DNA from: Nitrospirota bacterium
Lineage (GTDB): Bacteria > Nitrospirota > UBA9217
DNA length: 64,000 nucleotides
NCBI GenBank assembly: GCA_963737155.1
Contig: CAVTRN010000002.1
Span: 2,464,001-2,528,000 of the forward strand
Reading direction: 5' to 3'
Positions 31,750 through 61,409 of the stretch are shown here, one piece after another; position 1 is the stretch's first letter; each line of letters begins with the position of its first letter. The notes below the pieces were generated by a model. The model had not been told where the DNA came from and did not search any database. It worked only from the letters and a program-made list of their open reading frames with translations. The position numbers and the translations under genes were made by a program.

Positions 31750-32076
31750 TCATGGTTCGTCATAATAGTACACTATCTCTCCTTGGCGTGCAAGCCCCAG
31801 TTTGTCTCGCGCCAGGATTTCAAGATAGTACGGATCTGTTTTCAAAGCATGGACATCCTTGAGAAGCCTTGCATTATCCAGTTTGAGCGTTGCAATTTCC
31901 TGAGTGAGGTAGTCATACCGCTCCTTCATTCGATAATATTTTATCACTCCCATTTCACCGAAAATGAAGGACACAAGGACGTAGAAGACAGCGACAACAG
32001 CAATGGCTATCAGCGCTATCCTGCTGCGTGAGCTCCGGGAACTGCGGTTTGTTTTTAAATAATTCCGTTTGCGCAT
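31750..32076 (-). CDS. ftsB: Septum formation initiator FtsB/DivIC
   Basis: TM helix, FGEMG, coiled coil, YLEILARDKLGLARQGEIVY. Confidence 0.85.
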   Translation of the reverse strand: MRKRNYLKTNRSSRSSRSRIALIAIAVVAVFYVLVSFIFGEMGVIKYYRMKERYDYLTQEIATLKLDNARLLKDVHALKTDPYYLEILARDKLGLARQGEIVYYYDEP

Positions 32077-32137
32077 GGCATGAGTAGCGTGGTAGCCGCT
32101 CGCTTTTTGTGTTACGGAAAAGAAAAGGACCGGGCTG

Positions 32138-32171
32138 TAAAAACAATACCACGAAGATCGGCTTCGTGGTA
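32138..32171 (-). terminator. Terminator after Lys-rich peptide ORF 2
   Basis: Minus strand TACCACGAAG-CCGAT-CTTCGTGGTA followed by TTGTTTT. Confidence 0.65.
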
Positions 32172-32217: not shown

Positions 32218-32274
32218 TTATTTCTTTTTGGTGGTCTTCTTCGCCTTCTTTGCCGGGGCTTTCTTCGTCGCCAT
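32218..32274 (-). CDS. 18-aa Lys-rich micropeptide MATKKAPAKKAKKTTKKK
   Basis: Not in ORF track; strong SD GGAAGGGGGTGA, ATG start, TAA stop, downstream terminator; similar to the peptide at 32427..32489. Confidence 0.7.
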   Translation of the reverse strand: MATKKAPAKKAKKTTKKK

Positions 32275-32368
32275 GAGTCATCACCCCCTTCCATAAATGA
32301 ATTTAAAATACGTGGCAAACAGGTAAGCTAACCTTGGTTCCACGCTCATTGCCAATCAGGGCAAATAC

Positions 32369-32395
32369 GCCGGGGGACTCTGTGGCCCCCGGCGG
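32369..32395 (-). terminator. GC-rich hairpin after Lys-rich peptide ORF 1
   Basis: Minus strand CGCCGGGGG-9 nt-CCCCCGGCG followed by TATTT; weak U-tract. Confidence 0.5.
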
Positions 32396-32426
32396 GCCCC
32401 ACTCTGCGGGACGCGATGCATGAAAA

Positions 32427-32489
32427 CTACTTCTTCTTGGTGGCCTTCTTTTTGGTCGCTTTCTTCTTCGCTTTCTTCTTGGCTGCCAT
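32427..32489 (-). CDS. 20-aa Lys-rich micropeptide MAAKKKAKKKATKKKATKKK
   Basis: Not in ORF track; SD AAAGGGGGTGGA, ATG start, TAG stop; 47 nt downstream of HEPN stop. Confidence 0.7.
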   Translation of the reverse strand: MAAKKKAKKKATKKKATKKK

Positions 32490-32536
32490 TATTTGTCCAC
32501 CCCCTTTCGGCATACCGCGTTCGGACTCAAGCGGCC

Positions 32537-33022
32537 TTATCTTGAAACAAGCTGAGGTACATAGTTAAGCAGTGACATCTGCGAGTACTTCTCCCGTATC
32601 CTGCCGTTCACAAGCTCGATAAATTCCTCAGCATCTTTGATTGCTTGCCCTGCCTCATACCGGGATATGATGTGTTCGGCATCCTCTATAAAGCTCTGAT
32701 ATTTCCGCCGCATTCTGTCAAACTTATTAATAAGACTTTTAAATTGCTCGCCGAGCAGCACTCCGGCGGCGGTTACTATGGTCTTTTGGGCATCTCGGCC
32801 CCGGACTCCTTTGGGCCTGAAACCCTCGGTAGAAATCAAAGCTCTTGCTGAGCGAACCATTGCCAGGTAGGCAGTCGCAAAAGCCCATTCTTCGTCTTTG
32901 TCCTGCAGAAGTTTGCTTGTCGCAAGGTCACGCTCCGCACGGGTAACGAGAGCTATGACCTCGCTGATCTCCGAAGAGCGCTCCTCAACAATCCCCAGAT
33001 TTTTTAACCTTTCATAAGTCAT
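32537..33022 (-). CDS. HEPN-domain protein with degenerate catalytic motif
   Basis: AERDL...EWAFATAYLAMVRSARAL...GFRP...FDRMRRK...EAGQAIKDAEEF HEPN pattern; R-X4-H/Y motif reads YQSFIE; overlaps upstream MNT gene by 11 nt. Confidence 0.78.
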   Translation of the reverse strand: MTYERLKNLGIVEERSSEISEVIALVTRAERDLATSKLLQDKDEEWAFATAYLAMVRSARALISTEGFRPKGVRGRDAQKTIVTAAGVLLGEQFKSLINKFDRMRRKYQSFIEDAEHIISRYEAGQAIKDAEEFIELVNGRIREKYSQMSLLNYVPQLVSR

Positions 33023-33578
33023 CTTCCTTGCCTACCAGAAAAATTTTCTTGCCTTTCAATAATTCCCGTATAAAGGGATCCTTAGATTCCTTCCGTTTAC
33101 GGTACTCCTGCTCATCAAATACCAGATAATCGATGTCCTGCTTCAATTTTTCTTCAAGGCCCATCACCATATCGTTTAATTCCGTGATGTTTGCTTGGCC
33201 AATGACCATGAGATTGATGTTGCTGTCCTCTTTCTCAGACCCCTTGGCGTAGGATCCATAAATGAACGCCGCCTGAACCCCCTTAAGCCGGGAGAGCGAC
33301 GTCTTCATGGCGCCTTGCGCACCGGTCGTTTTGAAAATTAGACCTTTCATCTCGGCGAAGATCGGGGAATTTTTATTCGCGAAGTAGTATTTCTGGACAC
33401 CCCGCTTTTCTTTTCCCAAGAGCCCGATCTTAACAAGGTTGTCAAGCTCACGCTTGATCCCCGCCGCATCCTTCCCGATATGGCGCGCTATCTCCCTCAG
33501 ATAGAACCGATCATCCGGGTTGTTAAAGAACAGGCCTAAAAGCTCCGCTCTTGTCGAAGAGAAGAGTTTTGTCAGCAC
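33012..33578 (-). CDS. Winged-HTH + minimal nucleotidyltransferase (MNT), catalytic DxD replaced by NxN
   Basis: FYLREIAR...IKRELDNL..IGLL wHTH; AFIYGSYAKGSEKEDSNINLMVIG; DPFIRELLKGKKIFL. Confidence 0.85.
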   Translation of the reverse strand: MLTKLFSSTRAELLGLFFNNPDDRFYLREIARHIGKDAAGIKRELDNLVKIGLLGKEKRGVQKYYFANKNSPIFAEMKGLIFKTTGAQGAMKTSLSRLKGVQAAFIYGSYAKGSEKEDSNINLMVIGQANITELNDMVMGLEEKLKQDIDYLVFDEQEYRKRKESKDPFIRELLKGKKIFLVGKEDDL

Positions 33579-33594
33579 CTTGTATCACCTCGTG

Positions 33595-61073: not shown

Positions 61074-61409
61074 ATGGAGAGACCGGACAAAGTTGAGAAA
61101 GAAGATACGCAGAAAATAAAGCTCATTTTTCTCTCACTTGCAGTATTAGCGACGATCTTGCTGATTTGGAGTTTATATGCCGCTAACAAGGCCAGAACAG
61201 AGCGGGACTCTGCCAGGCAGGATTTGGAGCAGTTGAAACAGGACAATGCAAAACTCGAAGAGATGGTGAAAGACCAAAACCAGGAAATAGACGCTCTTAA
61301 GAAGCAAGTACAGGAGTGGGAAGCCAAAGCCAAAACAAAGCCTGTGGTCAAGAAAAAGGCTCGAGCCAAAGTCAAGAAAAAGAAGAAGAAGTCAACAAAA
61401 CATTATTAG
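61074..61409 (+). CDS. Hypothetical membrane-anchored coiled-coil protein with Lys-rich tail
   Basis: Single TM, heptad-like region, C-terminal KKKARAKVKKKKKKSTKHY. Confidence 0.65.
   Translation: MERPDKVEKEDTQKIKLIFLSLAVLATILLIWSLYAANKARTERDSARQDLEQLKQDNAKLEEMVKDQNQEIDALKKQVQEWEAKAKTKPVVKKKARAKVKKKKKKSTKHY

Follow-up and report, generated by a model that had tools for sequence, protein, structure and literature searches.

The DNA analysed here is a 64,000-nucleotide (nt) stretch of the genome of a Nitrospirota bacterium, which we call the window, and our subject is a pair of very short, lysine-rich genes within it. The original prediction was of two tandem open reading frames (ORFs) of 18 and 20 amino acids (aa), each with a strong Shine–Dalgarno (SD) site, an ATG, a stop codon and a downstream hairpin. 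Both were confirmed, on the minus strand and with limits exactly as first noted (32218..32489); we refer to the upstream one as ORF1 and to the downstream one as ORF2. The elements that define them are as follows.

32507-32497, minus strand: SD site of ORF1, AAAGGGGGTGG, 7 nt 5′ of the ATG.
32489-32427, minus strand: ORF1, encoding the 20-aa peptide MAAKKKAKKKATKKKATKKK, with stop codon; 12 of 20 residues are Lys.
32292-32280, minus strand: SD site of ORF2, GGAAGGGGGTGAT, 5 nt 5′ of the ATG.
32274-32218, minus strand: ORF2, encoding the 18-aa peptide MATKKAPAKKAKKTTKKK, with stop codon; 10 of 18 residues are Lys.

The predicted peptides carry net charges of about +12 (ORF1) and +10 (ORF2) and are devoid of hydrophobic or acidic residues. 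They contain the units KKAPAKKAKK and APAKKAKK and fourfold (A/T)KKK repeats, with ORF1 representing an (AKKK)n type and ORF2 an APAKK type.

Conservation of the locus was followed first by DNA searches. With the region as query, a first sample gave matches in 14/14 genomes of the same genus and 24/24 of the family, and the 306-nt mini-gene segment alone matched 60 of 63 further genomes in this Nitrospirota family (f1). The three family genomes without a match are 63–88% complete, and among the high-quality genomes (completeness ≥ 90%, contamination ≤ 5%) the count is 32/32, the window's own included. The locus is near-universal and core-gene-like in the family. The SD site, ATG, frame and stop codon of both ORFs are kept in 18/18 syntenic relatives; conservation of the SD–ATG–frame arrangement, which the original prediction had named as a check, also holds for the 44 Nitrospirota records described below, and nothing in it speaks against the prediction.

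The pattern of variation is that of coding DNA. Across a 19-locus alignment, the differences within the ORFs are wobble changes (AAA/AAG, GCN, ACN and CCN) and in-frame indels of 3 or 6 nt, and the ORF1–ORF2 spacer, 146–248 nt long, is free to vary in both sequence and length. In three relatives the ORF1 block retains 86–90% nucleotide identity, compared to about 70% for the adjoining ftsB. For estimates of nonsynonymous to synonymous polymorphism (pN/pS), we pooled 69 loci, in which some genomes occur twice from two sources, and counted only distinct DNA sequences. In the 63-nt class of ORF1 (15 distinct DNAs), variable columns at codon positions 1, 2 and 3 number 1, 1 and 13 of 19, respectively, with pS of 0.41, pN of 0.006 and pN/pS of 0.014; the 57-nt class of ORF2 (22 distinct DNAs) has 4, 1 and 17 of 17 and a pN/pS of 0.068. 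Across the main ORF1 and ORF2 length classes pS is 0.41–0.55. In the other length classes pN/pS ranges from 0 to 0.19, the highest value coming from a class in which two distinct 19-aa forms are combined. Length itself varies in ORF1-type peptides, from 18 to 30 residues through gain and loss of repeat units, and is nearly fixed in the ORF2 type at 18–19 residues. Selection on the peptide had been proposed from the composition shared by the two ORFs; the third-position variation, the in-frame indels and a pN/pS of 0.014–0.07 in the main length classes uphold this and point to purifying selection acting on the peptide. ORF1 and ORF2 are genes, not chance ORFs.

The 3′ end of this genome's 16S ribosomal RNA (rRNA) reads ...GGATCACCTCCTTTCTAA, and therefore both SD sites pair with it over 10–11 nt with a single G-U wobble, at SD:anti-SD duplex energies of −18.5 kcal/mol for ORF1 and −20.4 kcal/mol for ORF2. 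We ranked by duplex energy all ATG ORFs of 8–45 codons with an SD-like motif in the 4.84-Mb genome. There are 432 at −12 kcal/mol or better, and four Lys-rich tiny ORFs hold ranks 1, 3, 4 and 5, with ORF2 third and ORF1 fifth. The comparison with long ORFs (3399 of 200 codons or more) was made conservative by crediting each with the strongest SD site of any of its start candidates; 2/3399 reach −18.5 kcal/mol and 0/3399 reach −20.4 kcal/mol, the median being −8.4 kcal/mol. The SD region of ORF1, CCGAAAGGGGGTGG, is invariant in 44/44 distinct sequences. These data show that the mini-genes bear some of the strongest ribosome-binding sites of the genome.

Related genes extend beyond the window's own family. 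The degenerate pattern KKAPAKKAKKxxKKK-stop, searched in the contigs of species genomes, gave 46 loci, 44 of them in Nitrospirota metagenome-assembled genomes and each of these a stand-alone tiny ORF with an SD site. ORF1 lies 150–230 nt upstream of ORF2 in 42/44 of the Nitrospirota records, the other two being cut by a contig end, and the two matches outside the phylum (Phycisphaerales and Hyphomonadaceae) are C-termini of longer H1-like ORFs. A second pattern (GGTG, 3–9 nt, then ATG-[A/P]-[T/A]-K-K..K) was found in 59/401 Nitrospirota genomes and its reversed control in 0/401, with matches by family of 36/63 in f1, 3/3 in f6, 13/76 in f9, 4/13 in f26, 1/9 in f27 and 1/2 in f29; this pattern is narrow, so a genome with no match is not thereby shown to lack the gene. 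The peptide of family f9 is MATKKAAKKPAKKAAKKK, with variants of 14–27 aa, that of f26 is MATKKAAKKATKKTAKKK and that of f29 is an 11-mer; f6 has three mini-genes in tandem, and two genera of f1 have three tandem copies of 19–30 aa. Overall, related mini-genes of 17–27 residues are present in other families, single or in tandem at one to three copies per locus, and have differing neighbourhoods in f6, f9, f26 and f29. Thr3, Pro7 and the TT before the final KKK are fixed across families in ORF2-type peptides. Judged from their sequences, the mini-peptides of the other Nitrospirota families are clearly related to ORF1 and ORF2. In the f9-type mini-genes (loci L078-L089), the 3′ hairpin has the arms GAGGAGGCG...CGCCTCCTC and no T-run after it, and thus holds both SD-like and anti-SD-like sequence.

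That annotation would miss such genes was also borne out. An exact look-up of 14 peptide variants, a set with the 18-aa ORF2 peptide outside it, found none among about 15 billion predicted proteins. Five peptides searched against Pfam and NCBIfam at E ≤ 10 gave no match (the 18-aa ORF2 peptide is below the 20-aa minimum). In the ESM Atlas, one 30-aa variant is present, the nearest clusters are unnamed 'hypothetical proteins' of 22–40 aa, and the nearest named cluster has Pfam HC2 in 17% of its members. The literature searched, with supplements and subscription journals outside its scope, held no paper on gene-encoded polylysine peptides of 18–30 residues in bacteria. In summary, the genes are real, conserved and undescribed in the literature searched, and it is their function that we infer.

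The surroundings of the pair comprise two upstream genes, several RNA structures, a downstream gene and an ORF on the opposite strand:

33012..33578, minus strand: upstream gene 1, a 188-aa winged-helix and minimal nucleotidyltransferase (MNT-like) protein.
32537..33022, minus strand: upstream gene 2, a 161-aa HEPN-domain protein (Pfam HEPN PF05168, 3e-9).
32514..32535, minus strand: leader hairpin with stem arms GCCGC and GCGGT and a 12-nt loop, lying 3′ of the HEPN stop codon and 5′ of the SD site of ORF1.
32396..32412, minus strand: small hairpin 3′ of ORF1, GTCCC, loop, GGGGC, weakly supported (RNAalifold).
32394-32368, minus strand: GC-rich hairpin 3′ of ORF1, RNAalifold consensus with a 10-bp stem, followed by GTATTT.
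32137..32171, minus strand: intrinsic terminator of the mini-gene pair from the terminator scan, hairpin at 32171-32147 with a 10-bp stem, then TTGTTTTT.
31750..32076, minus strand: downstream gene ftsB/DivIC (Pfam DivIC PF04977, 8.5e-17), a neighbour outside the element.
32416-32568, plus strand: hydrophobic ORF of 50 aa, MHENYFFLVAFF..., opposite ORF1 and its leader.

Upstream gene 1 matches the Pfam models Polbeta (PF18765, 1.1e-8) and NTP_transf_2 (1e-4), and HVO_A0114 at 9.8e-5 with 22.5 bits, which is under the 27.6 cut-off of that model. The HEPN gene is directly upstream of ORF1 and its 3′ end aligns in 19/19 syntenic loci. An MNT and HEPN pair is usually a mobile toxin–antitoxin-like module; the pair seen here is a stable syntenic neighbour of the mini-genes family-wide, and again in the second family f6. 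A GH57 glycosidase gene also lies downstream on the same strand.

Each mini-gene is a self-contained unit with its own SD site, ATG, stop codon and hairpin or terminator. The stem of the leader hairpin is invariant and its loop variable in the 44 distinct sequences, so that there is no covariation. In the small hairpin 3′ of ORF1, one pair alternates between U-G, U-A and C-G and the other pairs are invariant (RNAalifold). The GC-rich hairpin keeps 4/10 pairs through two-sided changes, which occur in 1, 1, 1 and 12 of the 44 sequences, and in the window's own sequence its innermost pair is C-U. Only 3 T follow this hairpin, for which reason the terminator scan did not call it, and it looks like a stabiliser or a leaky, weak terminator, not a full stop. 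The terminator after ORF2 has its stem (ACCACGAAG/CTTCGTGGT) and T-run conserved in 19/19 loci, with a variable loop. Rfam 15 gave no match between 30000 and 35000 on either strand at E ≤ 1, and a promoter scan of the minus strand around the two ORFs gave no sigma-70-like site; the mini-genes may be transcribed with the upstream nucleotidyltransferase/HEPN-like pair.

A small share of a 3-kb stretch of the locus is represented in five metatranscriptome runs, which come from two studies (peat and soil), and we examined four of these runs. Assembled contigs cover both ORFs in 4/4 examined runs and in both studies:

32219-32499: RNA contig, run X1, record 1.
32231-33583: RNA contig of 1389 nt, run X2, record 10, spanning both upstream genes (nucleotidyltransferase and HEPN) and both mini-ORFs; remnants of adapter are present at its two ends.
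32238-32697: RNA contig, run X4, record 12.
32229-32450: RNA contig, run X5, record 15.

The contigs come from relatives at 88–99% identity, mostly 88–95%. The same runs have almost nothing over ftsB or GH57, and no conclusion was drawn from this missing cover. Depth is higher over the mini-ORFs than over the neighbouring genes; it was not used to rank expression, because both depth and the choice of runs are biased and because conserved segments gather contigs from several relatives. What the contigs show is presence in the libraries and continuity across the ORFs, not strand, ends, level or a single transcript.

The genome has further Lys-rich ORFs outside the pair. ORF3 (C1:1118784-1118861, plus strand, outside the window) encodes the 25-aa peptide MACGSKCGAKKATKKKVATKKTTKK, a Cys-x-x-x-Cys head with a polylysine tail; its SD site, at −21.1 kcal/mol, is the strongest of all small ORFs, and it has its own terminator. 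It is located after ribF and about 2.2 kb upstream of the 16S gene, and MACGxxCG...KKK peptides like it occur in five relatives (L110, L112, L114, L117 and L121). ORF4 (C1:929451-929389, minus strand, also outside the window) encodes the 20-aa peptide MAASRQGAKKETKKPKSKKK behind the SD site AAGGGAGGTGAT, with an N-terminus that is not of low complexity. A near-identical 20-mer, MAASRQGAKKEVKKPKSKKK, is found in relatives, with DNA matches in 17/40 other family genomes and a 20-aa ORF of this kind read in 12/19 retrieved loci (L127-L145); at this locus only the SD site and the ORF are conserved, not the flanks, and a spermidine synthase gene is 2.3 kb away. On contig C2, at about 2992343-2992651, a 102-aa protein joins a Cys-rich, zinc-ribbon-like head (CRECG...CCG) to a 50-residue Lys/Ala/Thr tail. 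This tail resembles the mini-peptides, and therefore such tails are also found fused to a folded domain in this genome. Within the window, at 61074-61409 on the plus strand, a 111-aa ORF with weak, sub-threshold DivIC/coiled-coil-like matches ends in a polylysine C-terminus, ...KKKARAKVKKKKKKSTKHY. Finally, an identical 25-codon ORF, MARPQKTHIWRSYESDFINSDDLHR, with GTAAAGGGGGATGGTTAGGT upstream, recurs at at least 12 places (e.g. C1:1268563-1268640 and C2:73470-73547) and is presumably part of a multi-copy mobile element.

Our working interpretation, which we advance tentatively and would place a little below an even chance, is that the ORF1 and ORF2 peptides are free nucleic-acid-binding polycations, chiefly nucleoid-associated. 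The accumulation of the peptides, their binding to nucleic acid and the nucleic acid concerned are all points that we infer. On this interpretation, ORF1 and ORF2 would be stand-alone, very highly translated micro-genes behind the conserved nucleotidyltransferase/HEPN-like pair. Residue 2 is Ala, or in relatives Ala or Pro, which predicts that the initiator Met is cleaved off. As abundant free polycations, the products would bind the phosphate backbone, chiefly of chromosomal DNA and perhaps of rRNA or mRNA, and the resulting charge neutralisation would compact or stabilise nucleic acids, an action shared with bacterial H1-like proteins, protamines and the Lys/Ala/Pro-rich C-terminal tail of H1. 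With no polyphosphate (polyP) kinases found in the genome and no membrane-active character in the peptides, DNA and RNA would be the obvious targets. The bulk form would be ORF1, whose (AKKK)n repeat varies in length, and ORF2, which has the APAKK turn and a nearly fixed length of 18–19 residues, would therefore be the more specific one; tandem duplication, giving between one and three copies at a locus, would determine the dosage. The drift in repeat number and the changes in copy number of the ORF1 type fit a bulk counter-ion or condensing role like that of H1 tails and protamines, and the fixed length, Thr3 and Pro7 of the ORF2 type leave real room for a defined site, e.g. on the ribosome. 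The binding roles first proposed for the peptides, to the nucleoid, the ribosome or RNA, are each plausible candidates.

Several points weigh against nucleoid-associated polycations. The existence of the peptides and their binding are predictions from the DNA, and the RNA contigs come with no strand, transcript ends or usable depth ranking, and DNA carry-over is possible. With nine HU/IHF-family hits and a spermidine synthase, the genome has no obvious shortage of DNA-binding cations. The strict length and fixed positions of the ORF2 type fit a defined binding pocket, such as one on the ribosome, better than bulk neutralisation. A nascent chain of 18–20 residues stays inside the exit tunnel, and conservation alone is therefore also compatible with an arrest peptide acting in cis. 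A narrower proposal, that the peptides substitute for polyamines or make up a deficit of them, was unsupported and dropped, as spermidine synthase and the nine HU/IHF-family hits are present; one of these nine hits carries internal stop codons. Beyond the single genome, we consider as a doubtful extension that the mini-genes would be the Nitrospirota branch of an undescribed, widespread class of gene-encoded peptide polycations, a kind of bacterial 'micro-protamine'. They would then rank among the most heavily translated products of the cell and be core to whole lineages, mostly uncultured, acting as a protein counterpart of polyamines in organising the nucleoid, the ribosome or both, with separate targets for the (AKKK)n and APAKK types.

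A defined site on the ribosome is the subject of the explanation that survives best after our own, in which the peptides are integral ribosomal micro-subunits, that is, lineage-specific tiny basic proteins filling grooves of the rRNA like eL41, Thx, bS22 and bL37. Size and charge match such proteins, the signals for translation are of extreme strength, the locus behaves like a core gene of the family, and the 18-residue length of the ORF2 type is kept across f1, f9 and f26. The position of ORF3, the third mini-gene, about 2.2 kb upstream of the 16S gene counts on the same side, and so do literature reports in which tiny ribosomal proteins still emerge from cryo-EM. However, no ribosomal model of NCBIfam or Pfam matches even at E ≤ 10, and neither the one to three copies per locus nor the 18–30 residues of the ORF1 type is typical of structural ribosomal proteins. 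The genes also lie outside ribosomal-protein operons, among nucleotidyltransferase/HEPN, ftsB and lpxC neighbours, and we judge it unlikely on balance that these are ribosomal subunits.

The upstream genes suggest another partner. The nucleotidyltransferase/HEPN-like pair precedes the mini-genes in 19/19 aligned f1 loci and three mini-genes of f6, f26 has a 183-aa winged-helix protein at that position, and one RNA contig of 1389 nt spans all four genes. The peptides could accordingly act with the pair, either as its substrates (e.g. nucleotidylated) or as the neutralising or delivered partner of a toxin–antitoxin-like module. We regard this as improbable: gene order within one lineage can be mere inheritance, the upstream gene in f9 and f29 is a HARE-HTH protein or unrelated, and ORF3 and ORF4 lie among different genes in this genome. 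In addition, the HEPN-like protein has no obvious Rx4-6H RNase motif when read by eye, with no formal test.

The anatomy of short ORFs with strong SD sites and hairpins after them is that of an attenuator, and arrest peptides are similar in size and conserved at the amino-acid level. The original prediction had listed Lys-sensing leader peptides among the possible roles, and in its general form the idea is that the peptides would be cis-regulatory leader or arrest peptides that sense Lys-tRNA supply or the state of the ribosome and control a downstream gene. The structures and the neighbours make this improbable. Neither the alignment nor single-sequence folds gave a conserved alternative (antiterminator) pairing or anything beyond the hairpins, and the segments between stop codon and hairpin vary in sequence and length. 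A long-range pairing between the leader at the ORF1 SD site and the sequence after the GC-rich hairpin, present in one minimum-free-energy fold, was dropped, as its 3′ partner is not conserved in the alignment. Both mini-genes have a hairpin or terminator of their own at the 3′ end, that of ORF2 being strong and constitutive-looking, and Rfam is empty here. The downstream gene also differs: in the window it is ftsB, two other genera of the family have a zincin-like gene in its place, and f6, f26, f29 and one f9 genome have a convergent lpxC. No downstream gene is in lysine metabolism. Tandem duplication of the whole unit would make sense for dosage, but not for a sensor.

Binding to polyP, another of the roles first listed, would make the peptides a miniature of AlgP and a spacer of polyP granules. 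Its precedent is the Lys-rich, H1-like AlgP, which is reported to associate with polyP granules in Pseudomonas (PMC9239181). It is disfavoured here because this genome, rated 100% complete, gave no match to polyP kinase 1 (PPK1; PF02503 and PF13090) or to polyP kinase 2 (PPK2; PF03976), each model having matched 7–8 of 14 control genomes, and we consider it very improbable.

Scarcely credible is the last alternative, in which the real gene would be the 50-aa hydrophobic ORF of the plus strand, encoding a membrane peptide like a type I toxin: its frame is open in all relatives and the AAA/AAG wobble is also synonymous there (TTT/TTC), but 17/44 ORF1 loci lack an ORF beginning with ATG in that frame, its starts and its N- and C-termini differ, the frame shifts between relatives, it has no SD site, and the antisense frame of ORF2 in the window has only a 7-aa ATG ORF, in contrast to a sense SD site, ATG, stop codon and length that are invariant, and it was rejected as not conserved as a gene. 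More generally, the antisense of any polylysine ORF is open and Phe-rich (Phe/Leu/Ala/Val), with synonymous sites common to both strands, which is a trap for such analyses.

If the polycations are made in the amounts that their signals imply, every annotation, proteome and model would lack a major polycation of a whole phylum, which includes environmentally important Nitrospirota of soil and groundwater. Gene callers skip such ORFs, and proteomics that relies on trypsin would destroy their products. ORFs of 18–20 codons can evidently carry the strongest ribosome-binding sites of a genome. The peptides, which can be synthesized, would offer a simple test of how bacteria use gene-encoded peptides to neutralise nucleic-acid charge instead of, or beside, polyamines and HU-type proteins.

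We compared the mini-genes with known systems of similar anatomy or composition. Attenuator leaders and arrest peptides (ErmCL, TnaC and the His and Trp leaders) have in common with them a short ORF with an SD site and then a hairpin; they differ in that the present locus has no alternative structure, no conserved regulated gene and a tandem duplication of whole units. The tiny basic ribosomal proteins (eL41, Thx, bS22, bL37 and bL36) have 24–40 residues, mostly Lys and Arg, and are core genes with strong translation signals, some of them overlooked by annotation. The mini-peptides are likewise strongly basic and no longer than about 40 aa, but they have no similarity to any of the models, their copy and repeat numbers vary, and their genes are outside translation operons.

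The bacterial and eukaryotic H1-like proteins, i.e. Pseudomonas AlgP, Chlamydia Hc1 and Hc2, the tail of mycobacterial HupB and the C-terminal tail of eukaryotic H1, are a closer comparison in composition, which rests on established knowledge of these tails. Common to them and the mini-peptides are the Lys/Ala/Pro-rich low complexity, the units KKA, PAKK and AKKK, and the very high positive charge, from which an electrostatic hold on polyanions is expected. The 'histone-H1-like' label given to the peptides at the outset holds for composition, but not for homology in the sense of a model match, as no H1 model, Hc1 (PF07432) or HC2 (PF07382) matched the peptides searched at E ≤ 10. On their sequences, the peptides are not demonstrable members of Hc1, HC2, AlgP or any ribosomal-protein family, and a link to polyP granules as in AlgP is unlikely here because no polyP kinase was found in the genome. 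The H1-like proteins also have 100–350 residues, many repeats of drifting number and often a folded domain, whereas here the whole gene is one unit of 18–20 residues, with nearly fixed length and no folded domain. In-frame stop codons are conserved in the 44 records, and these 18–20-aa mini-peptides stand against an H1-like type of more than 100 aa with multiple repeats. Protamines and polyamines, finally, resemble the peptides in being small, unstructured, highly cationic and presumably abundant, with the differences that protamines are Arg-rich and eukaryotic and that polyamines are metabolites, for which this genome has a spermidine synthase. By analogy with these systems, the peptides would probably act as polycations in the manner of H1 tails or protamines.

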